A stretch of 64,000 nt of DNA from Flavobacteriales bacterium (GCA_016788295.1 JAEUSY010000013.1:1862-65861), one strand, 5' to 3'. Shown: positions 19,425-62,691, numbered from the stretch's first letter. Notes: generated by a model not told the origin, from the sequence alone. Program-made: numbers and translations.

Positions 19425-19565
19425 GACGAAGGGTTTTCAACAAAGAAGGCGGCAAATATAGCGTTGTTGGCCTACCCCCAAAGACCGGGACGCAGATGGC
19501 ACCGGACTATCTTTGAAGCATCGTCCGAAAAGGGTGCTGACAGCCCCGAACCAATCCTGCGCAAC

Positions 19566-21912: not shown

Positions 21913-21938
21913 GATGAATGTTCTTGTCCTGCGTGAGA

Positions 21939-22877: not shown

Positions 22878-23037
22878 TGCTTTACGCAGGTTGTAAGATT
22901 GTTGTTCGAAGAAAGCGGGCACGAAAGTAAGCGATCCCCAAGGCCCGTACCTGACGATCGTTAACGGCGGGGCCCGGAAGAGAATTCTCGAACTCCGGAG
23001 GCATCCTTTTCAACCGCTTTTCGTCAATTGGACGGAC

Positions 23038-23712: not shown

Positions 23713-23716
23713 CGGC

Positions 23717-24988
23717 ATGACGAACATGAAGGGATACGATCCATTCGAGCACTCCATCCGGGAGTCGTTGGGGTCCTATGAGGTCCCCTATAACTCTGCG
23801 GATTGGACGCAGCTCGAGCGCCGGATGGACCAAGGGGGGGGCACAGGACGGTCACTATCCGCCGGTCTCATCGCGTTGCTCTTCGGTGGCACCTTGGCAG
23901 CTGGCAGTGCACTTTGGCTTATGCTGCAGACCTCACCATCGGTTGAGGCGGACCATTCCGATGAGCCGACACTGGCCGAGGTAGTTGAAAGAGGTGAGGC
24001 TCTCGGCACCTCGGAAGTAACTATGACCGATGGTTCCGAGCAGGACCTTGATGCAGAGCGAACATCCGCAGTGTCGCCAAACGCGGTATCAACAGGTCAT
24101 ACTAGCGCAGGCAGCTTCGCCCAACGGGCAAACGCTGGCGTACAAAGCGAAAACAACGGACAACCCTCGAACACTTCGACCGAGCGCCCAACCCCCCCGG
24201 TCAATAAGGAAGTTGCCATCCGGCCCAGCATTACTTCCGGCTGCCCTGGCACCACAGTGAACTTTGACGCTCAGAACCTTCCCGAAGGCGGCATTTATCT
24301 CTGGAACTTCGGAGATGGATCATTCTCGAATAAGCCATCCCCCAGCCATACGTTCTCTAAATCAGGTGTTTTCGAGGTCATGTTATCCCACTCATCCATG
24401 GGTGGTGGTAACATCTCCAACAAACCAGCTTCCGACCGGATCGTTATACACGAGGTCCCCGAAGCCTCTTTCAACACCCTGAAGCAGGAATACGACAATA
24501 CGGTGCCCTCGGTACATTTTGAGAACCGTAGCGTGGGTGCCAAGAGCTACACGTGGGACTTTGGTGATGGCACCACATCCAGCACACCGCACCCGGACCA
24601 TGTTTACAAACAAAAGGGCGCCTACCATGTGATCCTTACAGTGACCAATGCCAACGGTTGTTCGGACCGCACTGAACGCACTGTACGCATTGATGAGGAT
24701 TATAACCTACTGGCACCCAATACGTTTTCCCCAAACAATGACGGCGTGGAGGACACCTTCATGCCTGAAGCGCTGAAGTCTCTGGGCGTGAAGTTCAACT
24801 TGACCATACATGACCCACGTACTGGGCTGCTCGTTTTCGAATCCACCGATGCCCAGCGCACATGGAATGGACGCATGGGCGGCAAGGGCGAGTTATGTGC
24901 ACCTGGAGAATACGTGTGGATGGTAGAGATGAAGGACGGCGAAAAGCTGGGCGGGACCTACAACGGTAATGTAAGCTTGGTCCGGTGA
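23717..24988 (+). CDS. Anti-sigma-like single-pass membrane protein with extracytoplasmic PKD domain and T9SS type-B (gliding-motility-associated) C-terminal domain
   Basis: Starts 5 bp after the sigma gene. About 45-aa cytoplasmic N-terminus, then a TM helix (LIALLFGGTLAAGSALWLML). PKD motif (YTWDFGDGTTSSTPHPDHVY). C-terminal LAPNTFSPNNDGVEDTF...GEYVWMVEM...VSLVR. Confidence 0.6.
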   Translation: MTNMKGYDPFEHSIRESLGSYEVPYNSADWTQLERRMDQGGGTGRSLSAGLIALLFGGTLAAGSALWLMLQTSPSVEADHSDEPTLAEVVERGEALGTSEVTMTDGSEQDLDAERTSAVSPNAVSTGHTSAGSFAQRANAGVQSENNGQPSNTSTERPTPPVNKEVAIRPSITSGCPGTTVNFDAQNLPEGGIYLWNFGDGSFSNKPSPSHTFSKSGVFEVMLSHSSMGGGNISNKPASDRIVIHEVPEASFNTLKQEYDNTVPSVHFENRSVGAKSYTWDFGDGTTSSTPHPDHVYKQKGAYHVILTVTNANGCSDRTERTVRIDEDYNLLAPNTFSPNNDGVEDTFMPEALKSLGVKFNLTIHDPRTGLLVFESTDAQRTWNGRMGGKGELCAPGEYVWMVEMKDGEKLGGTYNGNVSLVR

Positions 24989-25010
24989 CTGTTGACAAAC
25001 GCACCTCGTT

Positions 25011-25046
25011 AATGAGCCCGGCCCCAGCCGGGCTCATTATTTTTGT
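25011..25046 (+). terminator. Rho-independent terminator
   Basis: AATGAGCCCGGC-ccca-GCCGGGCTCATT followed by ATTTTTG. Confidence 0.65.
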
Positions 25047-25184
25047 CATCAGGCAACCAAAACAGTCGCCGATCCATCATTCTTCCACGCGAGCTTTCCA
25101 GTGGGAGCGTGACTCCTCTCCAGGGTCTTGTTCCTAACTTGACAATTACGCACAGTCCTTCCTTCCAAGCGATCGATCTATCTC

Positions 25185-28100
25185 ATGATCAGCAACTTGC
25201 ACAACTTCATCCGGCTGGCTACCCTGTGCTTGGCATGTGTCTTGAGCACGCCCCAGGTCACCTATGCCCAACAGTTCAGCATAACTGCAGGTAGTATCAC
25301 CACTTGCGCAGGAGTTCTTGAGGATAGTGGTGGTCCTGCGGGGCAATACGGCAACGGGGAAAATTACACGGCCGTGATCTGTCCGGACATCCCCGGAGAT
25401 GGCATCTCCCTGCTCTGGGCCGTGTTCAACCTGAGCAATACCGGCCCCAATCCTGTGGACCGCATACGGATCTGGGATGGCAATTCCACGGCAGAGACTT
25501 TTCTTGGCGAATACACAGGAACGGCATTGCAGGGCTTGATCGTTTCCGCCACCACCTTTAACAGTTCAGGTTGCCTTACTGTACAGTTCATTTCGAATGC
25601 GAACGGGGTTGGCGACTTTGCCGCTGCCATTACGTGCTTCACTCCGTGCGAGCGTCCAGTGGCGGTCGCTACCATGACCGAGGCAAGTCCAGCATTGGTA
25701 TGCATTGGCGAGACCATTGATTTCGATGGCATGGCGTCCTATGCGGCGGCAGGCTTCAATATCGTTTCCTACACATGGGATTTCGATGACGGTACTACGG
25801 ATAACTCTCCGGTCACATCGCACGCTTACTACGAACCAGGTGAATACATTGTCCAGTTGAACCTGATCGATGACAACGATTGTGTGAATGCCAACGTGGT
25901 GGACCTTCAGATCTTGGTGAGCACGACGCCGATATTTGCCGGAACCACGGAAAGTCTGGAAGTCTGTTTGGGGTCGACCGTTGACCTTACCGGGGTCGCC
26001 GTTCCTGTAACGTGGACAGGCATTCCAGAAGCGAACTTTGGGAACGGGGTATACTTGCCCGATGACGTGGGCACACCATTTTCAAGCGAGCTGACCTTTG
26101 CTCAATTCGAACCTGGCCAGACGCTCACGAATGTGAATGACCTGCTTTCCATATGCATCAGCATGGAGCATTCATTCATGGGTGATCTGGTGCTCTCCGT
26201 TACGTGCCCGAGTGGACAGGTCATCATTCTGCACCAGCAAGGCGGAGGAGGAACCTACATAGGTGGCGCCAACGATGGTGATGGGAATACGAATCCTGTT
26301 CCCGGCACGTGCTGGGATTACTGTTGGTCGCCGACCGCCACCTTGGGTACATGGGTGCAAAGTGCAGCCTTCGGCACCTCCCCGAACGTGATGCAGGGAG
26401 GTACTCCGCCCAACAATGCCCTTATTCCCGGCACATACACCTCTCTACAACCTTGGAGCAACTTGGCAGGTTGTCCGCTCAATGGCACATGGACATTCAC
26501 CTCGCTGGATCTTTGGGGCGCGGACAATGGGTTCCTCTGCAACTGGTCGCTCAACTTCAACCCTGGCATCATTCCGGATGTCACACAATTCACTCCGGAC
26601 CTCGGCTTGAGCACGTTGGATTCGACCTATTGGATCGGACCCTACGGAACGCCTGACCCGAACAACCCGACCGAGCTCAGCTTCACGCCGGACCTGCCCG
26701 GTTCGTATAACTACACCTACCTGGTAACGGACAATTTCGGCTGTACTTACGACACTACCATTACCGTGACGGTGGCGGAACAAATGGTGATCGATGCCGG
26801 ACCGGACATTATCCTTTGCAATGACCCGCTACCCATGGCCGGCCAGATCGTGGCCAACGGGCCTCCGACCAACTGCACCTGGGTATTACAACTCCTGGAA
26901 ACGTTCGGGGATTCATGGAACGGAGGGGCAACATTGGCTGTCATCATTGATGGGGCACAAACCAATTATTCCATCTCTACGAACGGCACACTTCAGCAAT
27001 CGATAAACCTTAGTGTTTCCACAGGGTCATCGATCATTCTACAGTACACAGCAGGAACGATCTTCAATGGCGAGAACTCCTTCCGTCTGTATGACGACCT
27101 TGGTAACATTGTCTATCAATCGCCTCAAGGTCCTCCCACAGGTGTGGCTTGGTCCGGTACGATCTCTTGTGACGGTGGCACCTCACCAACTGTATGGGAA
27201 TGGTCGCCGACCGGAGGCCTCGACGATCCTTCCGATCCGTTGACCAATGTTTTCACGACCCAATCCACATGGTACGTTCTCACAGCCTATCCTGCTGGCA
27301 ATCCGCAGTGTGCCGTTGTGGACAGCGTGAACGTTAGCCCCGACCCATCGATCAACGCCGGACAGAGCAATGCACTGATCATCTGCGCCAGCGAACCCGT
27401 TTTCCTGATGACCGACTCTCTATTAGGCACACCCGATCTGGGTGGCGTATGGACGGATGCGGCCGGCAACGTTATGCCCGACACGTTCGATCCGGACAAT
27501 GGCGTTACCGGGGTATACACCTACACTGTAACGAGCGCTGCGGGCTGCCAAGCCACCTCGACCTTGGACATTACAGTGATACCCGCCGACGACCCGACCT
27601 GTTGCGGTGTAGTGGATGCTGGTCTGCCTGCCTTCTCCTGCAACCTATCCATCGCACTAAGCGCTACTCCCGGCAATACAGGTGTCGGAAACTGGGTTGG
27701 ACCTGTTGGGGCCATTTTCGCTGATGCCTTCGCCACACAGACCACGGTAAGTGTGCAGCCTGGCATGGGCGGTTCGCACTGGTTCTATTGGGTCGAGGAC
27801 GATGGAGCGTTCTGCTACCTGATCGACAGCGTGCAGATGACCTTCACCGACACGATCATCATTTCCTTCACCCACACGGACGCCATCTGCTTCACTTACT
27901 GTGATGGCACAGCGCAATCCACCATTACCGGAGGGAATGCAGCCGCGGGGTTCAATTATACCTGGAGCAACGGCTCGAACGGAGTTAACGTGGATGCCGT
28001 GACCGGCCTATGCGCGGGCACCTACACACTGACCGTGACAGACGACAATGGATGCACTGGTTCCAATACCGTTGTGATCAACGAACCGATCCTACTGGAG

Positions 28101-28865
28101 ATCGATTCGCTTGCCACACAACCGGTCACGTGCTCAGGTGATTGCGACGGTCAAGTGGAGGTCTATGATCCAGAGGCGGTCTGGTACAGCTACGACGACG
28201 GTGCCACATGGACGAATTCCTCGGTGCTTGTTGATGCTTGCGAAGGCATTTACCCGATCCGCATCCGGAATGCCGCTGATTGCATTGGCACAGGAGCGAT
28301 CGCCGTGACAGGCCCTCCTCCAGTCGTTGCTGCGTTCGAGTGGGCACCCATTCCCGCCGACGTGAACGACCCCACGATCTACTTCAATACCACCTCGACC
28401 GGTTCAGACCATTACTACTGGGATATTGCCGGACTAACAAGCAGTACACTACCGAACCCCTCCTACACCTTCAACAACAAGGAACCGGGTGTTTACAACG
28501 TTTGCTTGACCGCTTTCAACTTCAATGAATGCCCGGATACGATCTGCCACGACATCATTATTGACGATGTGCTTTTCGTGTACATCCCGAACTCCTTTAC
28601 TCCGGACGGCGATGGGCTTAACGAGGTTTGGGGCATGAGCACCAATATCCCCGCGATCACCAATTTTGAGATGTACGTGTTCGACCGTTGGGGACAGGTG
28701 GTGTACAACACGAACAACCCTTACGCGACCGGCTTCTGGAATGGAGCTTACCAAAACAGCGGCTCCGTGCTGAAGAGCGATGTTTACGCTTATCGGATCA
28801 CGTATGAGATAGCGGCGACATTGGTTCGCAAGGAACTCATGGGCCATGTGACACTCTTGAAGTAA
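25185..28865 (+). CDS. Giant secreted adhesin-like protein (paralog 1): CUB-like N-domain, PKD, proprotein-convertase P-domain, FGDGWNGG module, SprB-like Cys repeats, PKD, T9SS type-B CTD
   Basis: Signal peptide. CUB-like CxGxL...ICP...I.DG pattern. P-domain ICISMEHSFMGDLVLSVTCPSGQ. SprB-like repeat CDGTAQSTITGGNAAAGFNYTWSNG. C-terminal FVYIPNSFTPDGDGLNEVW...GHVTLLK. Confidence 0.8.
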   Translation: MISNLHNFIRLATLCLACVLSTPQVTYAQQFSITAGSITTCAGVLEDSGGPAGQYGNGENYTAVICPDIPGDGISLLWAVFNLSNTGPNPVDRIRIWDGNSTAETFLGEYTGTALQGLIVSATTFNSSGCLTVQFISNANGVGDFAAAITCFTPCERPVAVATMTEASPALVCIGETIDFDGMASYAAAGFNIVSYTWDFDDGTTDNSPVTSHAYYEPGEYIVQLNLIDDNDCVNANVVDLQILVSTTPIFAGTTESLEVCLGSTVDLTGVAVPVTWTGIPEANFGNGVYLPDDVGTPFSSELTFAQFEPGQTLTNVNDLLSICISMEHSFMGDLVLSVTCPSGQVIILHQQGGGGTYIGGANDGDGNTNPVPGTCWDYCWSPTATLGTWVQSAAFGTSPNVMQGGTPPNNALIPGTYTSLQPWSNLAGCPLNGTWTFTSLDLWGADNGFLCNWSLNFNPGIIPDVTQFTPDLGLSTLDSTYWIGPYGTPDPNNPTELSFTPDLPGSYNYTYLVTDNFGCTYDTTITVTVAEQMVIDAGPDIILCNDPLPMAGQIVANGPPTNCTWVLQLLETFGDSWNGGATLAVIIDGAQTNYSISTNGTLQQSINLSVSTGSSIILQYTAGTIFNGENSFRLYDDLGNIVYQSPQGPPTGVAWSGTISCDGGTSPTVWEWSPTGGLDDPSDPLTNVFTTQSTWYVLTAYPAGNPQCAVVDSVNVSPDPSINAGQSNALIICASEPVFLMTDSLLGTPDLGGVWTDAAGNVMPDTFDPDNGVTGVYTYTVTSAAGCQATSTLDITVIPADDPTCCGVVDAGLPAFSCNLSIALSATPGNTGVGNWVGPVGAIFADAFATQTTVSVQPGMGGSHWFYWVEDDGAFCYLIDSVQMTFTDTIIISFTHTDAICFTYCDGTAQSTITGGNAAAGFNYTWSNGSNGVNVDAVTGLCAGTYTLTVTDDNGCTGSNTVVINEPILLEIDSLATQPVTCSGDCDGQVEVYDPEAVWYSYDDGATWTNSSVLVDACEGIYPIRIRNAADCIGTGAIAVTGPPPVVAAFEWAPIPADVNDPTIYFNTTSTGSDHYYWDIAGLTSSTLPNPSYTFNNKEPGVYNVCLTAFNFNECPDTICHDIIIDDVLFVYIPNSFTPDGDGLNEVWGMSTNIPAITNFEMYVFDRWGQVVYNTNNPYATGFWNGAYQNSGSVLKSDVYAYRITYEIAATLVRKELMGHVTLLK

Positions 28866-28883
28866 GTCCAAAAACCCTTAACA

Positions 28884-28917
28884 AGAGCGGCGACCACTGG
28901 TCGCCGCTCTTGTTTCC
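28884..28917 (+). terminator. Rho-independent terminator
   Basis: AGAGCGGCGACC-act-GGTCGCCGCTCT followed by TGTTTCC. Confidence 0.65.
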
Positions 28918-29077
28918 GACCGTTTGGGCGTTCAACAGCTGGCCCTTTGATGGCGGAAGGAAAGGTGTACTTGTCCGATCTTTGACAGTGGTCAAATAAG
29001 GATCAGTGCGCACAATGAACAGCCAGGGAACTTTTCACGGCGTTCGTGCGTCATCATCCCGACCGCACCGCTCAACC

Positions 29078-32000
29078 ATGATGCCGACCTCCCATTTCGT
29101 GTATAGGTTCACTCGCTTTGTCTCTTTGATGCTCGCTTTGGCTTGGTTCACACTGGCCCAAGCCCAAGTGATCCACAACATTGCCGATGGTAACCTTAAC
29201 GCATGCGATGGTGCCATTGTGGATAGCGGCGGGGAAGGTGGGCCCGGCTACGGCAACAACGAGAGCCATACTGCCACGATTTGCCCGGGCACACCCGGCG
29301 AAGGGGTCAGCCTCAACTTCATCATGTTCAACCTGAGCACTGCCGGGCCAGCACCATTGGACCAGCTCACGGTCTTCGATGGCGACAACACTGGAGCACC
29401 GGTGATCGGCACCTACACAGGCACTGAACTACAGGGACAGATCGTCTTTGCATCAGCGACCAACCCAACAGGTTGCCTCACTTTGTTCTTCACTTCCAAC
29501 GACAACGGAACGGGTACGTTCGCGGCTTCCATCACGTGCTACACACCATGTATTCCGCCTGATGCGGTGGCACAAATGAGCGAGCCTGCACCCGCCTTGG
29601 TCTGCGTAGGTGAGGACGTTACGTTCGACTGTAGTGCATCAACCGCGGCTGCAGGCTTCAACATCGTTAGCCGGGTCTGGGACTTCAATGATGGCACAAC
29701 AGATGAGGGCGCCGTGGTGCAACACAACTTCTCAGAACCGGGCGACTACCTGGTACAGTTGACGTTGACGGATGATAACGGCTGCACAAATACCAACCTC
29801 GTGGACCTGCTGGTGCTTGTTGGCACCACGCCGCTGTTCAACGGCACTACGCCAAGCCTGACCGTTTGTGAAGGAGCCACGGTAGACCTAACGGGTATTG
29901 TGACACCGGTGATGTGGACAGGCATTCCCGAGATCGATTTCGGTGACGGGGTATATCTCCCGGATAATGTGGGAAGCACGTTCACAAGCCAAGTAAGCAA
30001 CACCTATTTCTCTCCTGGAGCAACGCTGACCAACGTGAATGACCTTTTGTCCATTTGTGTGGACATGGAGCATTCGTTCATGGGCGACCTTGTCATCAAT
30101 CTCACCTGCCCCAACGGACAAAGCGTCGTGCTGCACCAACAAGGTGGAGGAGGCACCTTCCTGGGAGGCGCGAACGATGGGGATGACAACAACCCGCAGC
30201 CTGGGACCTGTTGGAACTATTGCTGGGCACCCAATGCGCCCAACGGCACCTGGGTACAATCGGTCGGTGCAGGACTGACCATGCCTTCTGGCACTGGCGG
30301 CAACGCTTTGCAACCAGGCACCTACTCCAGCGTTGGTAGCATGAACAACCTGCTCGGCTGCCCGCTGAACGGTACATGGACCATCGCCTTCACCGACCTC
30401 TGGGGCATAGACAACGGTTTCCTCTGTGCTTGGAACATGGACTTCAGCCCATCGCTCTATCCTGACCTGGTCCAGTTCACTCCCGTGCCCGGTTACAGTA
30501 CCACGGACTCCATGTACTGGTCCGGCCCGAACGTGGTGATCAACCCGGCCGACCCGCTTACAGGCTCGGTGACAGTGAACGATCCCGGCGTGTTCAACTA
30601 CACGTTCAACGTAACGGACAATTTCGGGTGTGTGTACGACACCACGATCACGATCACAGTGACGAATGCTCCGGTCGTAGAGGCCACCATGACCTTGGGT
30701 GCGGGCTGTAGTGATCCCGCCCAATTGGACGCGACCATCGTGGCATTCCCCCCTCCCCCGCCGCCATGCAACTACACGCTCACACTTTACGACTCGTTCG
30801 GTGATGGATGGAACGGGGGTGCGAACGTGCAGGTAGTGATCAACGGTGTGGCAACGACCTACTCGCTTCCACCCGGCGGGAACTCAGCATCGTATCCCAT
30901 TAGTGTGCAGACCGGAGCTACTATCTCGCTCGTATTCACGGCCGGGAACATTTGGAACAACGAGAACTCGCTGGCCCTTTTCAGCTATTCCGGAGCCACA
31001 TTGTACACGTCACCGGCCGGCCCTCCCACATCCACGCTTTGGACAGGAACCGGCAACTGCGGCCCGAACAGTGGACCCGTGGTGTATGCATGGACCCCGG
31101 CCGCTGGCGTTGTCTCCCCAACAAGCGCAAGTACCCTCACACAGATCACTCAGCCCACGGAATTCGTGGTGACCATACACCCACCTGGCCAGCCGTGGTG
31201 CAACACCACGGATACCGTTCTAGTGGCGCCTCCCTCATTCCTTGAAAGCGACAGTATCGTTACGCATGTGCTCTGCAACGGCGGGGACGGTTCGATCGAG
31301 ATCATCAATACTGGCCTTGGCGGCCCATGGAACTACCTCTGGACGAACGACCAGGGCGCAACTGTAAGTCAGGTGAACGGCGCTTTCGGGAATACACTTA
31401 CTGCTCCTGCTGGAACGTATACGGTGATCGTGACAGAAGGCGGGCCTGCGGCTAATGGATGTGCGGATACCCTAACGACCTCCATAACGGAACCAGAACT
31501 GCTGTTGTGGGACGTGCTGCCAGTTGATACCACGATCTGCCTCACCGGCATTGCCCAACTTGCTGCCACCACCACCGGCGGTACTGGCAACATCACCATA
31601 GTGTGGACTCCGGGCCTCGTGGGTAGCGGCCCCCACAACGTCAGCCCCGCGAACACCACAACGTACGCCCTGCAGGCCACTGACGCCAACGGTTGTGTCA
31701 TCGGTGGTGAGCAGGTCACCGTGACCGTGCTTCCTGCATTATCATACCTCCCGCTACAACCCGATGCGGAGTGCTTCGGTATTCCGGTGGATTACTTCGC
31801 GGTTGGTGTAAGCGGCGGTGATGGCGCCTACCAGTACGATTGGGGGCAGGGCCCACAACCGAGCCCCACAGCAACTTTCACATTGCCAGTTACCGGTACT
31901 GTTTGCATGACCTTGAGCGACGGCTGCGAAACACCACCGTTGACCACCTGTGCAACACTGGAGATATTGCAGACACCGCCCTTAGAACTGGTGGCCGACA

Positions 32001-32770
32001 CGGTGTTCGGATGCGCACCTTTTACGGTGGGCTTTGCACTAACGGACACAACAGGTGGAGCACAAGTGCGATGGTCATTCGGTCATGGACCTTCCGTGCA
32101 AGCACCACCGAACACCATACACGTGTATAATGTGGCCGGCAACTATACAGTGGGGGTTGAGGTGACCTGGCCGAACGGCTGCATTACGGACACGAGCATC
32201 GCACAAATGATCCGGGTGATCTCCGTGCCTATCGCGAGCATGACCTACAGCCCACGCCCGCCCACAGTGAATAATTCAGAGGTGCAGTTCCAGGATACGT
32301 CCATACCCAATGCGGTCTCATGGTTCTGGGATTTTGATGAGCTGGGTACCAGCACAGAGCAGGATCCCGTGGTGGAATTCCCCAACGAAACGAGTGGTGT
32401 TTACCCCGTGCTTTTCGCGGTTGCCAATGAACTGGGATGCTCCGACACGTTGCGCACTTTGGTCGAGGTGCAGGACGAGTTCCTTGTTTGGGTGCCGAAC
32501 ACCTTTACACCGAACGATGACGCACATAACCAGACCTTCTTCATCAGCGGGAATGACATCGCCACAGACGAGTTCGAACTGATCATCTTCGACCGCTGGG
32601 GACATGAGGTGTTCAACACTACCGATCCATACCTGGCATGGAACGGCACCCACATGAACAAAGGAGGAGAGATACTTCCCACCGGCATCTATAATTGGCG
32701 CTTGAGCGTACGATCACAGTCCACACAAAAGGAAAAGATCATCTACGGTCATGTGAACCTGCTGAAGTGA
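29078..32770 (+). CDS. Giant secreted adhesin-like protein (paralog 2), same architecture as 25185..28865
   Basis: Signal peptide MMPTSHFVYRFTRFVSLMLALAWFTLAQA. The CUB-like domain, P-domain (ICVDMEHSFMGDLVINLTCPNGQ), FGDGWNGGANVQVVINGV module and type-B CTD (LVWVPNTFTPNDDAHNQTF...GHVNLLK) are collinear with paralog 1. Confidence 0.8.
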   Translation: MMPTSHFVYRFTRFVSLMLALAWFTLAQAQVIHNIADGNLNACDGAIVDSGGEGGPGYGNNESHTATICPGTPGEGVSLNFIMFNLSTAGPAPLDQLTVFDGDNTGAPVIGTYTGTELQGQIVFASATNPTGCLTLFFTSNDNGTGTFAASITCYTPCIPPDAVAQMSEPAPALVCVGEDVTFDCSASTAAAGFNIVSRVWDFNDGTTDEGAVVQHNFSEPGDYLVQLTLTDDNGCTNTNLVDLLVLVGTTPLFNGTTPSLTVCEGATVDLTGIVTPVMWTGIPEIDFGDGVYLPDNVGSTFTSQVSNTYFSPGATLTNVNDLLSICVDMEHSFMGDLVINLTCPNGQSVVLHQQGGGGTFLGGANDGDDNNPQPGTCWNYCWAPNAPNGTWVQSVGAGLTMPSGTGGNALQPGTYSSVGSMNNLLGCPLNGTWTIAFTDLWGIDNGFLCAWNMDFSPSLYPDLVQFTPVPGYSTTDSMYWSGPNVVINPADPLTGSVTVNDPGVFNYTFNVTDNFGCVYDTTITITVTNAPVVEATMTLGAGCSDPAQLDATIVAFPPPPPPCNYTLTLYDSFGDGWNGGANVQVVINGVATTYSLPPGGNSASYPISVQTGATISLVFTAGNIWNNENSLALFSYSGATLYTSPAGPPTSTLWTGTGNCGPNSGPVVYAWTPAAGVVSPTSASTLTQITQPTEFVVTIHPPGQPWCNTTDTVLVAPPSFLESDSIVTHVLCNGGDGSIEIINTGLGGPWNYLWTNDQGATVSQVNGAFGNTLTAPAGTYTVIVTEGGPAANGCADTLTTSITEPELLLWDVLPVDTTICLTGIAQLAATTTGGTGNITIVWTPGLVGSGPHNVSPANTTTYALQATDANGCVIGGEQVTVTVLPALSYLPLQPDAECFGIPVDYFAVGVSGGDGAYQYDWGQGPQPSPTATFTLPVTGTVCMTLSDGCETPPLTTCATLEILQTPPLELVADTVFGCAPFTVGFALTDTTGGAQVRWSFGHGPSVQAPPNTIHVYNVAGNYTVGVEVTWPNGCITDTSIAQMIRVISVPIASMTYSPRPPTVNNSEVQFQDTSIPNAVSWFWDFDELGTSTEQDPVVEFPNETSGVYPVLFAVANELGCSDTLRTLVEVQDEFLVWVPNTFTPNDDAHNQTFFISGNDIATDEFELIIFDRWGHEVFNTTDPYLAWNGTHMNKGGEILPTGIYNWRLSVRSQSTQKEKIIYGHVNLLK

Positions 32771-32789
32771 CCGGCTCGATCTTCATTGC

Positions 32790-32830
32790 GAAGGGCTGAT
32801 GGCGATCCATCGGCCCTTTTGCTTTTCGCA
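32790..32830 (+). terminator. Putative Rho-independent terminator
   Basis: AAGGGCTGATGG-cgat-CCATCGGCCCTT followed by TTGCTTTTCGC. The stem is imperfect. Confidence 0.45.
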
Positions 32831-33032
32831 TCCATTGGCTTGTTCGTGGGTGATAATCAGACGTTCGTCCAAAACACGACCGCAAAGGCGCCTAATATCC
32901 GCAAGGCTGCTATTTTCATCGCTGAACCACCCGAACGATCGTCCTTAAGGGGGTCGTCGAGAACCAACACGCAGCATGCCCCTGCGCTGGACAATATTCT
33001 TGGAACGGATATCAAGCTTGGGCTTGACCCGC

Positions 33033-36000
33033 ATGGTGGTGGCCATGCTGATCGTGCTGCTTACATCGGGCGTTGTTAACGGCCAGGCCTATTCCATTTT
33101 CAACGGGACCACCAACGCATGTACAGGGGCATTCCTTGATAGTGGCGGACAAGGAGCGAGCGGCTACGGAAACAACGAGAACTACACCTACACCATTTGT
33201 CCCGATGTTCCCGGTGGTGCCATTTCGCTGAGCTTCCTCACATTCAACCTGAGCACTGCCGGAGCCGCGCCGATCGACTTCATGACGATCTATGATGGCA
33301 ACACCACGGCAGCACCACAGTTGGTCAATTGGACAGGCACGACAGGCCAGGGACAGGTCGTGAGCGCAAGCGGGGGCAATCCAACGGGTTGCCTCACCAT
33401 TGTGTTCCGAAGCAACAACACTGGTACAGGCGTCTTTGCAGCCACTATTACCTGTTACCAGCCCTGCAGCCGCCCCACGGCAGCAGCCACCCATGGCGCC
33501 ACCAACCCGCAACGCATCTGTCCGGGAGAAAGCGTCACGTTCAACAGTTCGGCGAGCACTGCGGCAGCGGGAAATAGCATCGCCAACCGACGTTGGGACT
33601 TCGGTGATGGCACTATCCTGAACAACGCGCCGGCCAATGTGAGCCATACCTATGCGCAGCCCGGAGGCTACATGGCGCAACTGACCGTGTTCGACAACAA
33701 CGGTTGCGCGAGCACCAACCAAGTTGACCTGCTTGTGCTCGTTGGCACGCAACCCACTTTCAACGGGACCGGCGGCACGCTGACCGGCTGCGTTGGTGAA
33801 ACATTGTGTTTGAACGGCGCAGTGCAAGGAACCTCTTGGACCGAGTCACCCAACCCCAACCTCGGCAGTGGTGTATTCCTGCCGGACATCGTGGGCGAGT
33901 GCTTCGAGAGCACCATCACCTACGATCAATTCCCTCCTGGGGCCACACTTACCAATGTTAATGGGCTGCTCTCCATTTGCATGGACATGGAGCACTCGTT
34001 CATGGGCGACCTCATCATCAACATCATCAGCCCTACCGGACAGACCGTTACCATGCACCAACAAGGCGGCGGCGGAACTTTCCTGGGAGTACCCGTTGAC
34101 AATGACCTGACGCCGAACGCGCAAGGCACTTGTTGGAACTATTGCTGGAGCCCAACGGCAACGAACGGCACATGGGCTGACAACGCCACTGGCACACTAC
34201 CGGCAGGAACGTATGAGAGCCTCAACCCGCTTTCCGGACTCGTCGGATCACAGCTTAATGGCACTTGGACCATACAGGTGTGCGACATGTGGGCGTCGGA
34301 CAACGGCTTTATCTGCAACTGGAACATCGACTTCAACCCCTCTTTGTTCGATGACCTGATCGAGTTCACACCGGTGTACGGCGCGCTATGTGACAGCAGC
34401 TACTGGACCGGGCCGAACATCACCGGCCAGACCGCGAACTGCAACCAGGCGTGCGTGACCCCGCCCGCACCAGGGAACTACAACTACGTATACCACGTCA
34501 CCGACAACTTCGGATGCACTTACGACACGACGTTGACGGTGAACATCATTCCTGGCCCGCAAGTGAACGCCGGACCCGATGCAAGCACCTGCAACACGCC
34601 CGTGCAATTGGGCGCAACGATCACGAGTGGCGGCTTCCCCACCACCTGCACCTACACGCTCACGTTGTACGATTCCTTCGGCGATGGATGGACGGGGCTC
34701 TTCGGCGGATCGAACGGATCCAGCGTGACCATCACCGTGAACGGCACGCCTTCATCATGGACACTACCGACCGGATCGCAGGGCAGCACAACGATCACAG
34801 TAGCCACAGGGAGCACCATTCAATTGAGCTACACAGCTGGCAGCTTGTACAATGGTGAACAATCGTTCACGCTGTTCAACAGTACCGGCGGAGTGGTTTA
34901 CGCATCGCCCACTGGCCCTGGTGGAGGCGTGGCCTGGAATGGCGCGGCCAACTGTCCGGGTGGCGGTTTCGTCTACAGCTGGTCGCCTGCTGCGGGGTTG
35001 AACAACCCGAACATCGCTGACCCGACGGCAACGGTCAGCGGGACCACGCAATACTGTGTAACGGTCTACCAGGTCGGTCATCCATCGTGCACGAGCACGG
35101 ATTGCATGACCATTACGGTGGACAACCAGGTGGATCCCGGCACCAATACCAATGTGGCCGCATGCAGCAACGGGGGAGCGATCACACTGTTCGCGCAACT
35201 GGGCGGCACACCAACGGCAGGTGGCACATGGACGGCTCCTGGAGGCGGAGCGCACAGTGGATCCTTTCAACCGGGGGTGGATCCACCAGGTGTGTACACA
35301 TATACCGTTGGTGGTGCAGGTGCCTGTGGCGCGCCGCAAAGCAGTACAGTGAATGTTACTGTGAACCCCTTGCCGAACGCGGGCACTTCATCGAGCATGG
35401 CAGCATGCAGTACCGATGCCACGCAATCGATGTTCGCACTGCTCGGCGGCGGTGCACAAGCAGGTGGCACATGGAACGGACCATCGCCAGTGGTAGGTGG
35501 GAACTACAACCCGGCCACCATGAACCCCGGTGTTTACACCTATACGGTGAACGGAACGGCGCCGTGCCCGAATTCGACGGCCACCGTAACAGTAACGGAG
35601 AACGCTCCACCGAACGCAGGCAACGATGCAAGCATTACGCTTTGCAACACAAGTGCGCCCGTAGTGTTGGTAACCCAACTTGGTGGAAGCCCCAGCGGCA
35701 CTGGAACATGGACCGCCCCTGGTGGTGGCACCGTTAGTGGTGGCCTTGACCCCGCAGTGGACCCATCCGGTGTATACACCTATAACGTGGACGGTACGGC
35801 ACCCTGTCCGAATGATCTGGCCACGCTGACCGTTGCGATAAACCCAGCCCCGAACGCGGGAACTCCCGGAGCGATCACGCTCTGTTCTTCTGATGCACCG
35901 GCCTCGCTCTTCGCACAACTCGGCGGAACACCTGATGTCGGCGGCACGTGGAGCGGGCCTTCACCAGTTGTAGGTGGTATGATCGATCCGGCGACGATGA

Positions 36001-39000
36001 ACGCCGGTGTTTACACCTACACGGTGAACGGCGTTGCGCCTTGTCCGAGCGAGAGCGCGACAGTGACGGTGACGATCAACACACCGCCTGTGCCAGGTAC
36101 GCCCGGCGCCATCACGCTGTGTTCATCGGATGCACCAGCATCGCTGCTCGCACAACTCGGTGGAACGCCTGATGCGGGAGGCACGTGGAGCGGGCCTTCA
36201 CCAGTTATTGGCGGCATGATCGACCCCGCGACGATGAACGCCGGTGTTTACACCTACACGGTGAACGGCGTTGCGCCTTGTCCGAGCGAGACCGCGACTG
36301 TGACGGTGACGATCAACACGCCGCCAGATCCAGGTACGCCCGGCGCGATCACACTGTGTTCTTCGGATGCACCGGCATCGCTCTTCGCACAACTCGGCGG
36401 AACGCCCGATGCAGGAGGTACATGGAGCGGGCCTTCGCCTGTGATCGGTGGCATGATCGATCCGGCGACGATGAACGCCGGTGTTTACACCTACACGGTG
36501 AACGGCGTTGCGCCTTGTCCGAGTGAGAGCGCGACAGTGACGGTGACGATCAACACGCCGCCAGATCCAGGCACACCCGGCGCGATCACGCTGTGTTCTT
36601 CGGATGCACCGGCATCGCTCTTCGCGCAACTCGGCGGAACGCCCGATGCAGGAGGAACATGGAGCGGGCCTTCACTAGTTGTAGGCGGCATGATCGACCC
36701 CGCGACAATGAGTGCGGGCGTGTATACCTACACGGTTGACGGTGTGGCGCCGTGCCCGAGTGAGAGCGCGACAGTGACGGTGACGATCAACACACCGCCA
36801 GATCCAGGCACACCCGGCGCGATCACGCTGTGTTCATCGGATGCACCGGCTTCGCTCTTCGCGCAACTCGGCGGAACGCCCGATGCAGGAGGTACATGGA
36901 GCGGGCCTTCTCCAGTTGTAGGTGGCATGATCGATCCTGCGACGATGGACGCCGGTGTTTACACCTACACGGTGAGCGGCGTTGCGCCTTGTCCGAGCGA
37001 GAGCGCGACAGTGACGGTGACGATCAACACACCGCCAGATCCAGGTACGCCCGGCGCGATCACACTGTGTTCTTCGGATGCACCGGCATCGCTCTTCGCA
37101 CAACTCGGCGGAACACCTGATGTCGGCGGCACGTGGAGCGGGCCTTCACCAGTTGTAGGCGGCATGATCGATCCTGCGACGATGGACGCCGGTGTTTACA
37201 CCTAAACGGTGATCGGCGTTGCGCCTTGTCCGAGCGAGAGCGCGACAGTGACGGTGACGATCAACACGCCGCCAGATCCAGGTACGCCCGGCGCGATCAC
37301 GCTATGTTCTTCGGATGCACCGGCATCGCTCTTCGCACAACTCGGCGGAACACCTGATGTCGGCGGCACGTGGAGCGGGCCTTCACCAGTTGTAGGTGGT
37401 ATGATCGATCCGGCGACGATGAACGCCGGTGTTTACACCTACACGGTGAACGGCGTTGCGCCATGTCCGAGCGAGAGCGCGACAGTGACGGTGACGATCA
37501 ACACACCGCCAGATCCAGGCACACCCGGCGCGATCACACTTTGTTCTTCGGATGCACCGGCATCGCTCTTCGCACAACTCGGCGGAACGCCTGATGCAGG
37601 AGGTACATGGAGCGGGCCTTCACCAGTTTCTGGAGGCATAATCGATCCGGCGACGATGAACGCCGGTGTTTACACCTACACGGTGAACGGCGTTGCGCCT
37701 TGTCCAAGTGAGAGCGCGACAGTGACGGTAACGATCAACACGCCGCCTGTGCCAGGTACACCCAGCGCTATCACGCTATGTTCTTCGGATGCATCGGCAT
37801 CGCTCATTGCACAACTCGGCGGAACGCCTGATGTCGGCGGCACATGGAGCGGGCCTTCACCAGTTGTAGGCGGCATGATCGATCCGGCGACGATGAACGC
37901 CGGTGTTTACACCTACACGGTGAACGGCGTTGCACCGTGTCCGAGTGAGACCGCGACAGTGACGGTGACGATCAACACGCCGCCAGATCCAGGCACACCC
38001 GGCGCGATAACGCTGTGTTCTTCGGATGCACCGGCATCGCTCTTCGCACAACTCGGTGGAACCCCTGATTCGGGTGGTACATGGAGCGGGCCTTCTTCAG
38101 TTGTAGGTGGCATGATCGATCCGGCGACAATGAGCGCGGGGATATACACCTACACGGTGGCTGGACTTGCACCATGCATGAGCGCGTCATCCACCGTCAG
38201 CATCACCATCAACACGCCATCGAACGCGGGCAACAATGGCAGTCTAACACTTTGCACGACCAGTACGGCCACATCGCTCTTCGATCAATTGGGAGGCAGT
38301 CCTCAAGCTGGCGGGACATGGAGCGGACCGAGCACTGTAACCGGCGGCATGATAGACCCGGCGACAATGAACGCGGGCAACTACATCTACATGGTGGCAG
38401 GGACTGCACCATGCCCCGACGTCGCCGCAACAGTGGCGATCGCGATCAATTCAATGCCCAACGCGGGGATCGATGGCGGCCTTACGCTCTGTTCATCGAG
38501 CCCGGCCACAACATTGATCAGCGGCTTGAACGGCACACCGGACAGTGGAGGCAACTGGACAGCACCCGGCGGTGGCGCATCGAACGGCACCTTCACTCCG
38601 GGAGTGAGCGTGACCGGCATCTATACCTACACGGTGAACGGCATAGCTCCGTGCCCTGCCGTTTCCGCGACCGTGGATGTGAACGTGGTAACGAACCCGA
38701 ATGCGGGCCTGCCCGGAAGTGTTACGCTGTGCGCTACTGATGCGGCGACCCTGCTCTTCGCGCAGCTTGGCGGAACGCCCGATGCTGGTGGCGTATGGAG
38801 CGGACCGAGCGCGGTGGTCGGCGGTTTGTACGACCCGGCCACGATGAACCCCGGCGTGTACACCTACACCATCGCTGTTCCTCCGCCGTGCGTGAACGCC
38901 AGCAGCACAGTGACCATCACCGAGATCGCACCGCCCAACGCTGGTACCGACGGCGCGCTCACCATGTGCATCAGCAGTCCGGCAACATCGCTGTTCGCGC

Positions 39001-42000
39001 AGCTTGTTGGTGGTGCACAAGCCGGTGGAACGTGGAGCGGACCTTCTCCTGTCGTAGGAGGAATGTTCAACCCAGCGACGATGACGGCGGGTGTGTACAC
39101 CTACACCGTGAGCGGTACCGCGCCCTGCCCTGCTGATCAAGCGCAAGTGACGGTGAGCGTGGTGGCCGCACCGAACGCTGGTACTCCGGGAAATGCAACG
39201 CTTTGCGCAACTGACAATGTCCTCAACCTCTTCGCGCAGCTTGGCGGAACGCCCGATGCTGGTGGCGCATGGAGCGGACCGAGCGCGGTGGTCGGCGGTT
39301 TGTACGACCCGGCCACGATGAACCCCGGCGTGTACACCTATACCATCACTGTTCCTCCGCCGTGCGTGAACGCCAGCAGTACAGTGACCATCACCGAGAT
39401 CGCACCGCCCAACGCGGGCAACGATGGCGCGCTCACCTTGTGCATCAGCAGTCCGGCAACATCGCTGTTCGCACAGCTTGGTGGTGGTGCACAAGCAGGT
39501 GGAACGTGGAGCGGACCTTCTCCTGTCGTAGGAGGAATGTTCAACCCAGCGACGATGACGGCGGGTGTGTACACCTACACCGTGAGCGGTAACGCGCCCT
39601 GCCCTGCTGATCAAGCGCAAGTGACGGTGAGCGTGGTGGCCGCACCGAACGCTGGTACTCCGGGAAATGCAACGCTTTGCGCCACTGACAATGTCCTCAA
39701 CCTCTTCGCGCAGCTTGGCGGAACGCCCGATGCTGGTGGCGCATGGAGCGGACCAAGTGCAGTGGTCGGCGGTTTGTACGACCCGGCCACGATGAACCCC
39801 GGCGTGTACACCTACACCATCACTGTTCCTCCGCCGTGCGTGAACGCCAGCAGCACAGTGACCATCACCGAGATCGCACCACCCAACGCAGGCACCGACG
39901 GCGCGATCACCTTGTGCATCAGCAGTCCTGCGACCTCGCTGTTCGCGCAGCTTGGTGGTGGTGCACAAGCCGGTGGAACGTGGAGCGGACCTTCTCCTGT
40001 CGTTGGTGGCATGTTCGATCCAGCGAACATGACCGCCGGTGTATACACCTACACAGTGAACGGAACATCGCCCTGCCCCAACGACCAGAGCATCGTGACA
40101 GTGACCGTGGTAAGCGAGCCAGACCCCGGTGGCCCCGGCTTCCTGACGATCTGCGCAACGGATGCGCCCGATGACCTCTTCAGTTACATAGAAGGCACAC
40201 CGGACCAAGGTGGCCAATGGACAACGCCAAGCGGCACAACGACCTCCGGCGTGTTCGATCCGGCTACCATGGCGTCGGGCGTATACACCTACACCATCAA
40301 CGTGCCTCCGCCTTGCGTCAGCGTGAGCAGTACGGTTACCGTGGATGTGATCACTGCACCGAACGCGGGACTGGATGGCGCAGCTATGCTCTGCCTCACT
40401 GGCGCTCCGCTCGATCTCTTCACTACGTTAGGCGGATCACCTGATGCCGGTGGGACCTGGACCACGAGCTCTGGCTTGCCGTTCAGCAGTACGTTCGACC
40501 CCGCGGTGCATTCTCCCGGCGTGTACAACTACACGGTGAACGGCATTGCGCCATGCCCAGCGGATGTTGCGAGCGTGACCATCGCGGTTACCCAACTGCC
40601 GTATGCAGGGAACGACGCGATCCTGAACCTCTGCGTTGTTGGTGATGCGGTCGATCTTTTCGGCGCATTGGGCGACGCGGATATCGGCGGCACTTGGAGC
40701 GGACCCGGTGGTGCTTCAGCAGGTGTGTTCACGCCGGGCAACAGCATTGCTGGTAACTACACCTACACCGTTGCTGGCTCGCCCCCCTGCCCGTCCGCAT
40801 CAGCCACTGTTACGGTGAACGTCTTGAGCAACGCCGACGCAGGAGGCGATGGCGGCACCACCTTGTGCGGAAGTGATGACCCATTGTCGCTCTTCGATCT
40901 GCTGCAAGGAAGCCCCGACGCAGGCGGCACATGGTTCGCTCCCGGCGGCTCCACAATGAACGGCATATTCAACCCGGCCAACAGCGCTCCGGGCGTGTAT
41001 ACCTACATCCTCTACGTACCTGCGCCATGCCAGAACGACACGGCACAAGTGGTCATGAGCGTTGTGGCCCCCGTGAGCGCAGGCACCAACGGAAACGCGA
41101 CCCTGTGCTCCAACGATTCTCCCGTCGCGCTCTTCAACTTGCTGAACGGCGCGCCGGACCTTGGTGGTTCCTGGACCGCACCGAACGGCGGCCCATCGGA
41201 AGGCAGCTTTGATCCAGGTGTTGACATGACCGGTGGCTATGTGTACACCGTCTACGCCATCGCACCTTGCACCGACCAAAGCGCCACCATAGCGCTGGGC
41301 GTGAACCCATTGCCCGATGCAGGCACCAATGGATCTGCCACGCTCTGTCCTGAAGCAGCGCCCATTTCGCTCTTTGCGCTGTTGGGTGGTTCGCCCATGC
41401 CCGGGGGCACATGGACCGGCCCCAACGGACAGCCGAGCAACGGCATCTTCGATCCGGCCAGCAGCCCACAAGGTGCATACACCTACACTGTTACCGGTTT
41501 GGCCCCGTGCCCGAACGCGATCGCCAGTTCAACGGCCACAGTATACCTCATCGCTCCGCCCAATGCAGGCCCCGATGCGGTATCCTGCACACTGGAGTTC
41601 ACGCTGAACGCCACGGGCAACTGGGCCAGCGGCACGTGGAGCGCAGCAGCCGGCATCACCTTCGGCGACAGCAATTCGCCGACGAGCACCGTTACAGCTA
41701 CCAGTGGCGGCGCATACACCTTCACATGGAGCGTGACCAGCAACGATGGCTGCGCGACGCAGGACCAGGTGACCATCACCTTCACCGATGCGATCGTGCC
41801 TGTTGTCGCCACCACCGATGCCATATGCAACAGTGCATGCGACGGTACGGCCAGTGTGCAGGCAACGGGCGGCAACGGCACCTACAGTTATGCTTGGTCC
41901 AACGGGATCGCAGGCAACACGCAAACGGCATCGAGCATCTGCGCGGGATCGTACACAGTGACCGTGCTTGATGTGAACAACTGCTCGGCAGCTGCGCCCT

Positions 42001-42788
42001 TCACCATTGGCGAACCCGTGGCACTGGTGATCGATGCCATCACTGCGGTGAACGAGACCTGCCCCGGAAGTTGCGATGGTACCATCACCATCTCCGACCC
42101 GCAGGGCGCACAATACAGCATCAATGGTGGAAGCAGCTACCAAGCGGGCGCCTCCTTTGCCAGCCTTTGCCCAGGCCAGTATGCGATCGTGATGATGGAT
42201 GGGAACGGGTGCACGGCCTCCGGGATCGCAACCATCACATCACCCGCACCCGTTACAGCCTTCTTCACGGTATCCCCGGACAGCCTTATCGCCAGCGATC
42301 CGGAAGCGCAGTTCAACAATCTTTCGAGCCCCAATGCCACGGCCTATAGCTGGGACTTTGCCGGGCTCGGCAGCAGCACGGCCACATCGCCCACCTACTC
42401 TTTCCCCGGCGTGCTGGGCGGCATTTACACCGTGTGCCTCACCGCCACCGATGCCAACGGCTGCCCCGATACCTACTGCGCCCCGGTGCAGGTCTTCGAT
42501 GCGCTGCTGGTGCACGTGGCCAATGTGTTCACGCCCAACCACGATGGCATCAACGAAGGCTTCGCGCCGGTGTTCAACATGGACTGGGCCGTGAGCGATT
42601 ACGAGTTCCTCATCTTCAACCGTTGGGGCGAACTGCTGTACGAGACCCATGTCGTGGACGAGAAGTGGAACGGCATACACGGTGGTGGTACGGTCGAGAC
42701 CGAAGTGTTCGTATGGAAGCTGCGTTGCCGCGACAAGCTCACCCGAAAGTGGATCGAGCGCATCGGGCATGTGACGGTGCTGAAGTGA
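33033..42788 (+). CDS. Giant secreted adhesin-like protein (paralog 3, about 3250 aa) with about 27 tandem 79-aa repeats and T9SS type-B CTD; reading frame interrupted by one TAA at 37203-37205
   Basis: Signal peptide MVVAMLIVLLTSGVVNGQA. CUB-like and P-domain (ICMDMEHSFMGDLIINIISPTGQ) as in paralogs 1 and 2. About 27 repeat units of the form C..D....LF..LGG.P..GGTW..P.....G..DP.....GVYTYTV.G..PCP. SprB-like repeats at 41.8-42.2 kb. CTD LLVHVANVFTPNHDGINEGF...GHVTVLK. ORFs 32976..37205 and 37209..42788 are in the same frame and differ from a continuous ORF only by TAC to TAA. Confidence 0.7.
35859..38228 (+). repeat. Ten near-identical 237-bp direct tandem repeats (coding, 79 aa each) inside the giant gene
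   Basis: The unit beginning GGTACGCCCGGCGCGATCAC...GATCAACACACCGCCAGATCCA recurs with only a few substitutions per copy at 35859, 36096, 36333 and so on, up to 37992. Confidence 0.85.
38650..40070 (+). repeat. Higher-order 474-bp (two-unit) near-identical tandem repeat, about 3 copies, inside the giant gene
   Basis: Identical peptide blocks (...PPPCVNASSTVTITEIAPPNAG... alternating with ...APCPADQAQVTVSVVAAPNAG...) recur with a 474-bp period. Spurious minus-strand ORFs 38864..39100, 39338..39574 and 39812..40048 are near-identical, which reflects the same repeat. Confidence 0.75.
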
Positions 42789-43278: not shown

Positions 43279-43302
43279 AAGCCCGGCTCATCGCCGGGCT
43301 TC
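43279..43302 (-). terminator. Hairpin downstream of gyrB (possible bidirectional terminator)
   Basis: AAGCCCGGC-tcatc-GCCGGGCTT. A T-rich tract follows on the minus strand (TCTCTTTC). Confidence 0.45.
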
Positions 43303-62549: not shown

Positions 62550-62691
62550 GGGATCTACTTGCAGGTTGCCCGCAATGTACAGCAAGCGGTAACAGCGCTG
62601 CTGACCAACATCAGCGACATCCTCGCAACCCCGGAACAAAAAAGACCCGACCGAGGTTCGGCCGGGTCTTTCAACTTGATTCTTTAAAGGC

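Follow-up and report, generated by a model that had tools for sequence, protein, structure and literature searches.

A conserved triad of predicted type IX secretion cargo proteins carrying one head on three stalk lengths in Flavobacteriales

In a 64,000-nucleotide stretch of a Flavobacteriales genome (GCA_016788295.1 JAEUSY010000013.1:1862-65861; hereafter the window), positions 25185-42788 of the plus strand are occupied by three paralogous open reading frame (ORF) systems, which we call gene 1, gene 2 and gene 3 and together the triad. [quoted passage not shown] What would such proteins do, and how did three of them come to stand side by side? The original prediction, made from the sequence of the window, had answered that they resemble the mobile adhesins of gliding bacteria and arose by a recent local expansion. 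Here we show which domains and which type of CTD the proteins carry, in what gene order the locus is conserved, that the paralogs are old, that repeat counts are kept among orthologs and that promoter-like motifs accompany the genes. It seems to us, with a probability of roughly 0.6, that the triad is a conserved set of sigma-regulated, T9SS-displayed binding proteins in which one non-catalytic head is carried on stalks of three lengths.

A shared head, different stalks and a type-B sorting domain

ORF calls and pairwise comparison bore out the arrangement of three same-strand paralogs at the positions given above, and gene 1 has the expected length of 1226 amino acids. The 1254 amino acids that had been given for gene 2 count an ORF extended to a GTG at 29006. 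We dropped this start: a conserved promoter-like motif falls inside the extension, and the most likely start is therefore the ATG at 29078, which gives a protein of 1230 amino acids. Gene 3 had been described as one gene of ~3250 amino acids, a figure that reads through an in-frame TAA; in the assembly it consists of two same-frame ORFs, and below we call the translation across the stop the read-through protein. The coordinates of the features are collected in Table 1.

The proposed collinear architecture of modular T9SS cargo was supported for all three proteins, which are most likely located on the cell surface. Their type-B CTDs score above the cut-offs of both TIGR04131 (49.7, 39.8 and 36.5 bits; cut-off 35) and CHU_C (PF13585; 58.7, 58.6 and 45.2 bits; cut-off 27), and they align with the canonical type-B motifs. 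At the other end each protein has, judged by eye, a signal peptide with a positively charged n-region, a hydrophobic core and an A-x-A-type site (TYA-QQ, AQA-QV and VNG-QA). PKD_4 gave strong matches in all three proteins, in line with the PKD domain assigned to them before, but the second PKD domain that had been placed in every protein is above threshold in genes 2 and 3 and below it in gene 1. The P-domain assignment also held, because P_proprotein (PF01483) exceeds its cut-off of 21 bits, at 27.6, 37.7 and 34.8 bits, with nearly the full model matched in genes 2 and 3. Among PDB chains, no P-domain was found by the family profile of this region (A4), the sole match of which was that of a PKD-like tail to KIAA0319L at 6e-6.

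For the N-terminal domain, the CUB family (PF00431) scored 20.0 bits in gene 2, 16.7 bits in gene 3 and 16.1 bits in the isolated domain of gene 1, all under the Pfam cut-off of 21.4 bits, which some relatives (P0057, P0082 and P0090) pass. On the other hand, a profile built from 39 N-terminal sequences (A1) matched the PDB chains of cubilin (1.2e-18), neuropilin-2 (4.6e-10), PCPE-1 (7e-10), neuropilin-1 (2e-6) and TSG-6 (2.5e-4), and the four-cysteine pattern of CUB domains is present. These matches to solved CUB domains, together with the pattern, support the earlier CUB-like call at the level of profile homology, although the domain fails Pfam's threshold.

Neither a protease nor any other catalytic family was detected in the three proteins by the Pfam and NCBIfam scans, no S8 domain precedes the P-domain, and the whole head is covered by non-catalytic modules. 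The proteins are therefore not analogues of convertases or tolloid. With the metazoan CUB proteins (cubilin, neuropilins, PCPE-1 and tolloid) they share the profile-level homology and the four-cysteine pattern, whereas they have no astacin or S8 protease and, by eye, do not conserve all of the canonical calcium-binding CUB residues. Likewise the P-domain matches the family known from proprotein convertases, but it stands alone, without their subtilisin S8 domain. In two relatives, P0090 and P0109, the same head is joined to a type-A CTD (PF18962) and not to one of type B; a swap of CTD class must therefore have taken place in this family. P0090 also has its CUB-like domain twice in tandem.

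The last module of the head, named after its FGDGWNGG motif, had been noted as unassigned and proved to be a real conserved domain. AlphaFold2 (AF2) models the module of gene 1 (residues 546-664) as an eight-strand beta-sandwich with a predicted local distance difference test score (pLDDT) of 89.5 and two invariant cysteines. The isolated module had no Pfam match at E up to 10, NCBIfam placed nothing over this region when the whole proteins were scanned, and a profile search found no PDB sequence match. Foldseek gave no significant neighbour in the PDB (best E 0.01, template modelling (TM) score at most 0.45), the weak ones including family 35 carbohydrate-binding module (CBM35) and C2-type sandwiches. 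The module is present in 3,454 cluster representatives at E<=1e-3 and in 1,178 at E<=1e-10, often in 2-13 tandem copies, and the source names looked up for proteins bearing it were all 'hypothetical protein'. When ten such proteins were scanned, four had a type-A CTD and others had fn3, Ig_7 or MopE-type motifs. The module is missing from the shorter members of the triad's own family. We regard it as a candidate new curated domain family, and this work brings to attention an uncurated beta-sandwich carried by ~3,450 protein clusters.

The stalks of the three proteins differ in the number of a 79-residue repeat, of which gene 1 has one copy, gene 2 none and gene 3 27. Pfam has no match to this repeat; AF2 models it as an immunoglobulin (Ig)-like sandwich (pLDDT 81), and two cysteines are invariant in each copy. 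Its best Foldseek match was a stem fragment of GhpA, the T9SS grappling-hook protein (bioRxiv 10.1101/2024.01.29.577165), and this match (9flu_A, E 0.09, TM score 0.48, 29% identity) is not significant; four more GhpA fragments were among the top 11 matches. The cysteine-rich SprB-like repeats of the original prediction were found at about two per protein and are marginal (PF13573, cut-off 28 bits; scores of 16.7-18.5, 21.1 and 28.5 bits, so that one repeat, in gene 3, is at threshold), whereas the bulk of gene 3 consists of the different 79-residue repeat.

Age and spread of the triad

A scan for relatives, in which one genome per species was used, returned at least 471 genomic relatives, and 75 loci were kept. 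All 75 belong to metagenome-assembled genomes (MAGs), for the most part under the names Flavobacteriales, Bacteroidota or Bacteroidetes. In the ~20 loci that extend far enough, three heads are found in the same order and each is closest to its positional counterpart, the identity between orthologs being 50-89% for gene 1 types, 42-92% for gene 2 types and 53-90% for gene 3 types. Between the paralogs of the window, by comparison, identity is 41% for genes 1 and 2 compared end to end and 45-50% when the heads are aligned. The repeat counts are kept within each orthogroup as well: gene 1 types have one copy, gene 2 types none and gene 3 types many (L037 has at least 25 and L027 at least 22, and both are open at the end of the locus). 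The order secDF, FG-GAP protein with type-A CTD, mdh, extracytoplasmic function (ECF) sigma factor, the 423-residue protein p423 and triad is kept in ~40 loci, and gyrB comes after the triad in the two loci that reach that far.

A recent local expansion, as first supposed, is ruled out by this evidence from orthologs, synteny and repeat counts, since the paralogs are 41-50% identical to one another while each has its own orthologs, at 42-92% identity and in the same order, in dozens of species-level MAGs. Because the orthologs stand in a shared order and keep their repeat counts per orthogroup, an ancestor must already have had all three genes and the long stalk in gene 3. Many genomes (L044-L054 and similar) have a further gene 1-like paralog (~53% identity) which is unlinked and lies outside the sigma-linked cluster; in L057 such an unlinked paralog has 11 copies of the 79-residue repeat.

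The architecture had also been called uncommon. This is true of the searched literature, in which we found nothing relevant on T9SS cargo with a CUB or P-domain, but not of the databases, where the family counts at least 471 relatives among genomes, and protein clusters to the number of at least 478, and is abundant under generic names such as 'PKD domain-containing protein'. The triad family represents further modular T9SS type-B surface proteins of a type ordinary for the phylum; it leaves the present view of the T9SS unchanged and extends the catalogue of type-B cargo. The clade recurs in MAGs that, to judge by their isolate names, come from activated sludge and lakes, and the triad offers a concrete, conserved candidate for particle or polymer attachment in uncultured Flavobacteriales.

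Regulation, surface display and the alternatives

Upstream of gene 1 lie the genes of an ECF sigma-70 family factor (TIGR02937, 102 bits; cut-off 42.9) and of p423. The sigma gene is syntenic with the triad in ~45 loci, and the sigma-p423 pair is kept in ~45 species-level loci. In the p423 protein a short conserved N-terminus, predicted to be cytoplasmic, precedes one transmembrane helix and a variable linker, after which come two PKD domains and the type-B CTD, and an FE..P.NSADW motif followed by the transmembrane helix is common to 47 orthologs. We consider p423 a candidate anti-sigma or sensor partner. No anti-sigma family matched it, nor did any other family match its N-terminus, a word-index search with its 75-residue N-terminus came back empty, and the literature searched held nothing relevant on T9SS-linked anti-sigma factors of this type. 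The position of a membrane-anchored protein with a T9SS sorting signal beside a sigma gene suggests a possible link between secretion and regulation. In the PorXY-SigP/PorA system of Porphyromonas gingivalis (PMC7712824) an ECF sigma factor is similarly tied to T9SS biology and to a CTD-bearing protein, whereas in our locus a transmembrane-anchored type-B-CTD protein directly follows the sigma gene, the cargo genes have matching motifs and no two-component system was seen. The link in our locus is drawn from the motifs only.

ECF-type promoter-like motifs sit in the otherwise unconserved spacers in front of the sigma gene, gene 1 and gene 2, those of the sigma gene and gene 1 sharing the bipartite form GGCA(T/A)CC-N15-16-C(G/A)TC. 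The motif of the sigma gene is found in 40 of 46 orthologous loci (shuffle mean ~0.5), shuffled spacers yielding at most about one locus in each of the sets compared (means 0.2-1.07). In the spacer of gene 1, GGCAAC occurs at fixed spacing to an RTCA element in 35 of the 43 sigma-linked loci; the family form reads GGCAAC(C)-N15/16-(C)ATCA, and the strict motif is present in 23 of the 43, against fewer than one in shuffles. For gene 2 a relaxed motif was found in 8/24 loci (0.3 in shuffles). Upstream of gene 3 the elements are unlike the motif of the sigma gene and gene 1: TTCGTC is present in 22 and TATTTT in 24 of 33 loci, and the bipartite form in 7. A scan of the whole window gave three matches to the promoter motif where 0.71 are expected. 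The third, at 5759-5785 on the minus strand, lies inside a DUF2851 gene and is regarded as a chance match. An ATCAAG k-mer 'upstream of gene 2' was also rejected, for it is the coding end of gene 1 (LIK and the stop codon) and no motif. The motifs in front of the sigma gene and of genes 1 and 2 make it likely that the sigma-p423 operon and gene 1, and probably gene 2, are under the control of the local sigma factor. These promoter motifs are directly testable, and we consider the sigma/p423 pair with its matching promoters, along with the uncurated beta-sandwich domain, the more interesting leads from this locus.

How could the proteins be held on the surface? The T9SS context within the window consists of a PorE-family gene, which is below its cut-off, and the FG-GAP protein with a type-A CTD, both pointing to a T9SS in this genome; the core gld/por genes lie outside the 64 kb. 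The PorE-family protein combines TPR/PD40 with an OmpA-like part; its gene is 12.7 kb upstream of the cluster and has no linked porP-like gene. A search with PorP_SprF detected no porP/sprF-like gene beside the four type-B-CTD genes or among the window ORFs scanned, and the triad proteins would therefore be 'orphan' substrates. In Flavobacterium johnsoniae, porP/sprF-like genes usually follow those of type-B substrates, while orphans share an unlinked shuttle (PMC12618676; PMC9143113), and partners of the PorP/SprF type keep hold of those type-B substrates that have been examined to date (PMC9143113); we took our anchoring model from these two works. The orphans Fjoh_1123 and Fjoh_1720 as well as Fjoh_4934, whose shuttle is Fjoh_1677, are like the triad in having no linked porP/sprF-like gene, and several triad substrates could share one unlinked shuttle as these orphans share Fjoh_1677, although outside the CTD they have no sequence relation to the triad.

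Accepting this model, each paralog would be exported by Sec to the periplasm, routed by its CTD through the T9SS translocon, handed over to an outer-membrane partner of the PorP/SprF type, the gene of which would lie elsewhere in the genome, and thereby held on the cell surface. The distal head (CUB, PKD, P-domain jelly-roll, Ig-like and FGDGWNGG) would be the ligand-binding module, the ligand being probably a glycan or a protein surface, and the same head would be shown at three set distances from the membrane, given by the number of 79-residue repeats in the stalk: 0 (gene 2), 1 (gene 1) or ~27 (gene 3). The sigma-p423 operon, gene 1 and probably gene 2 would be transcribed from ECF-type promoters under the local sigma factor. 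That the proteins are anchored, what they bind and what the height is for are points that we infer from their architecture, with SprB, GhpA and PG1035 as precedents. Such a system would be of interest for setting one binding head on stalks of three lengths, with an ECF sigma factor that appears to be dedicated to it.

Several points weigh against this explanation. The signal peptides were judged by eye only, the CUB scores stay under Pfam's own cut-off, and a Pfam score is the sole ground for the putative P-domain. There is no linked porP/sprF-like gene, p423 has no recognisable anti-sigma domain, and gene 3 has no sigma-type motif in front of it. In addition, gene 3 as assembled cannot give a secretable full-length protein. 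It would be a long shot to extend the explanation further and suppose that the sigma factor and p423, anchored in the inner membrane with its CTD at the periplasmic end, form a switch that senses secretion, that the T9SS, by engaging or removing this CTD, frees the sigma factor to turn on surface receptors of three tiers (heights of about 0, 1 and 27 Ig-like repeats), and that FGDGWNGG is a new widespread family of ligand-binding domains in Bacteroidota surface proteins.

Three other functions are possible, each less supported than sigma-regulated surface display of a binding head. We think it unlikely that the proteins are SprB-like gliding adhesins, put on the gliding track and driven along the cell surface to move the cell. 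With SprB of F. johnsoniae, which is anchored by SprF, they share a putative Sec signal peptide, a type-B CTD, a repetitive Ig-like/cysteine-rich body and a presumed surface display; gene 3 is large and repetitive, a few SprB-type cysteine-rich repeats are present (28.5 bits against 28 in gene 3), and some relatives are named 'gliding motility-associated C-terminal domain' proteins in the source databases. This name, however, describes the CTD and not a tested function, and only some of the type-B substrates of F. johnsoniae are motility adhesins (PMC12618676). Beyond the CTD the likeness to SprB comes down to about two marginal repeats, the head is unrelated, and genes 1 and 2, of only ~1,200 amino acids, are five times smaller than SprB with its 6,497. 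Moreover, no sprF-like gene is found downstream and no sprC/sprD-like genes or sprCD operon nearby, the neighbours being the ECF sigma gene, p423, a small ORF and gyrB. With about two marginal SprB repeats and no sprF/porP-like gene in the vicinity, the SprB/RemA-type mobile adhesin of the original prediction was not established. RemA of F. johnsoniae, for its part, has a type-A CTD and not a type-B one.

The structural matches of the 79-residue repeat raise another idea, namely that gene 3, and possibly genes 1 and 2, form a rigid multimeric appendage like that of GhpA of Aureispira (PDB 9flu, 9flp and others), which would catch particles or other cells with the CUB/P-domain head as its tip. 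[quoted passage not shown] We nevertheless hold this to be quite improbable: the Foldseek scores are not significant, the head has another fold and is unrelated to the antigen I/II-like tip of GhpA, and the PorP and PorE homologs which follow ghpA directly are not found downstream here, the PorE-family gene being 20 kb off and unlinked. In addition, GhpA forms heptamers, a feature not seen for the triad. We give as little chance to a release of the proteins without an anchor, in which case they might, for example, be accessory factors that bind carbohydrate or protein in polymer foraging rather than adhesins. This would agree with the lack of a linked PorP-like anchor gene, with a head made of the beta-sandwich and jelly-roll modules that are typical of CBM-like binding domains (including the weak CBM35 and C2-type neighbours), and with the type-A CTD that follows the same head in P0090 and P0109. 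However, the type-B substrates that have been studied remain bound to PorP/SprF-type partners (PMC9143113), neither an enzyme domain beside the head nor a neighbourhood resembling a polysaccharide utilisation locus is seen, and the conserved long stalks make most sense for cell-attached display.

The in-frame stop of gene 3 and the surrounding window

As assembled, gene 3 would yield an N-terminal product without a CTD and a C-terminal product without a signal peptide. The stop is a single change from TAC to TAA in one of ten very similar repeat copies, and the other nine read TAC. Nine of these copies, compared pairwise, are 85-96% identical in DNA, with 662 of the 822 pairwise differences at third codon positions and with 574 synonymous against 164 non-synonymous codon differences, and the frame following the TAA has no stop in 1859 codons, compared with 91 and 23 in the other two frames. 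The synonymous bias and the open frame imply that gene 3 was under purifying selection until very recently, or still is.

In our estimate there is slightly less than an even chance that the stop marks gene 3 as a pseudogene, in a locus undergoing decay in this strain. A TAA followed by an A, as found here, is a strong stop context, and the downstream ORF has no signal peptide and the upstream ORF no CTD. On the other hand, it is one substitution in an otherwise fully open frame with strongly synonymous differences among its repeats, the closest relative (L001) is read through the equivalent region without a stop, and the orthologs elsewhere are open for at least 2720 amino acids. A consensus error is equally plausible because the site lies within near-identical repeats, where short-read assemblies break. 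An independent Logan contig (SRR12425352) is 100% identical to the window over 22638-35933, gene 1 included, but it ends 70 bp into the array, so the TAA is outside the coverage of this independent assembly. Either a null allele has arisen very recently or the assembled consensus of the repeat array is wrong at the TAA.

In seven of the loci (L006, L007, L008, L031, L041, L064 and L072) the ORF of the gene 3 ortholog stops after ~1,000-1,490 amino acids, compared with more than 2,700 elsewhere, and most of the seven are on 'tig'-named contigs. They may represent assembly frameshifts in the repeats or real truncations, and the same doubt applies to the TAA of the window; giant repeat genes in assemblies may thus carry unverified stops.

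Table 1. Positions in the window of the triad, its domains and the associated elements. Residue numbers are those of the encoded proteins.
Feature	Position	Strand	Remarks
PorE-family T9SS component	10503..12512	-	NF052230 518.7 bits, E 2e-155, cut-off 600; Pfam OmpA, PD40
Promoter-like motif, sigma gene	23000..23025	+	GGCATCC-N15-CGTC, 38 nt before ATG
ECF sigma-70 family factor	23038..23712	+	224 aa; Pfam Sigma70_r2 and r4_2
p423	23717..24988	+	423 aa; starts 4 nt past sigma stop
Terminator-like hairpin 3' of p423	25010..25039	+	13-bp stem then T run
Promoter-like motif, gene 1	25052..25078	+	GGCAACC-N16-CATC, directly after p423 terminator
Gene 1	25185..28865	+	1226 aa
Gene 1 protein, N-terminal part			Putative signal peptide 1-29; CUB-like 30-158; PKD 167-237; P-domain ~288-460; Ig/PKD-like ~475-535
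Gene 1 protein, C-terminal part			FGDGWNGG 546-664; 79-aa repeat 726-801; about two SprB-type Cys-rich repeats ~895-1000; degenerate PKD; type-B CTD 1134-1226
CUB-like domain	gene 1 25272..25658; gene 2 29171-29560; gene 3 33087-33476	+
P-domain region	gene 1 26046..26564; gene 2 29948-30451; gene 3 33870-34340	+	PF01483 above cut-off in all three
FGDGWNGG module	gene 1 26820..27176; gene 2 30710-31066; gene 3 34593-34961	+	Uncurated beta-sandwich
Hairpin 3' of gene 1	28880..28914		16-bp stem
Promoter-like motif, gene 2	29027..29053	+	GGAAC-N17-CGTCA
Gene 2	29078..32770	+	1230 aa from ATG; same head, no 79-aa repeat, three PKD matches, type-B CTD
Hairpin 3' of gene 2	32790..32819	+	13-bp stem then T-rich tail
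Gene 3 upstream elements	32845..32919	+	CGTGG-N16-CGTC (32845-32869), CTATTTTCA (32910-32919)
Gene 3 N-terminal ORF	32976..37205	+	1409 aa; putative signal peptide, head, first 79-aa repeats, ends at TAA
79-aa (237-bp) repeat array	35139..41552	+	27 tandem Ig-like copies, aa 722-2859 of the read-through protein
Array sub-regions	35859-38228; 38754-40078		Most similar copies; 474-bp double-unit sub-array
In-frame TAA	37203..37205	+	TAC to TAA in one repeat copy
Gene 3 C-terminal ORF	37209..42788	+	1859 aa; rest of repeats, two SprB-type repeats, PKD, type-B CTD ~42513-42788

The window is otherwise ordinary chromosome (GS-III, prfA, pyrF, murB, gyrB and mdh), with the triad between mdh and gyrB. 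Each of the three genes had been thought to be followed by its own hairpin terminator, and this is so for genes 1 and 2, but gene 3 has none: the next hairpin, at ~43281-43300, is separated from it by a small unconserved ORF, and its orientation is that of a terminator for the convergent gyrB. The small ORF, located between gene 3 and gyrB (42817-43272, plus strand; ~144 amino acids from an ATG at 42840), begins like a signal peptide. It had no family match and no tblastn match in the two related loci reaching gyrB, and it may not be a real gene. On the other side of the cluster, an ORF of 348 amino acids at 21918-22964 (plus strand) was rejected as an antisense artefact of the malate/lactate dehydrogenase gene at 21939-22922 (minus strand), which is 82-97% identical in related loci. 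The FG-GAP/VCBS-repeat protein with a type-A T9SS CTD is encoded at 19513-21858 (plus strand) and is syntenic with the cluster in most related loci. Farther away, a di-haem cytochrome c peroxidase is encoded at 55258-56388 (plus strand), and ~4 kb beyond it a large protein (60555-63086, minus strand) shows weak, sub-threshold multi-haem matches of the cytochrome c7 and MtrC/MtrF-like kind.

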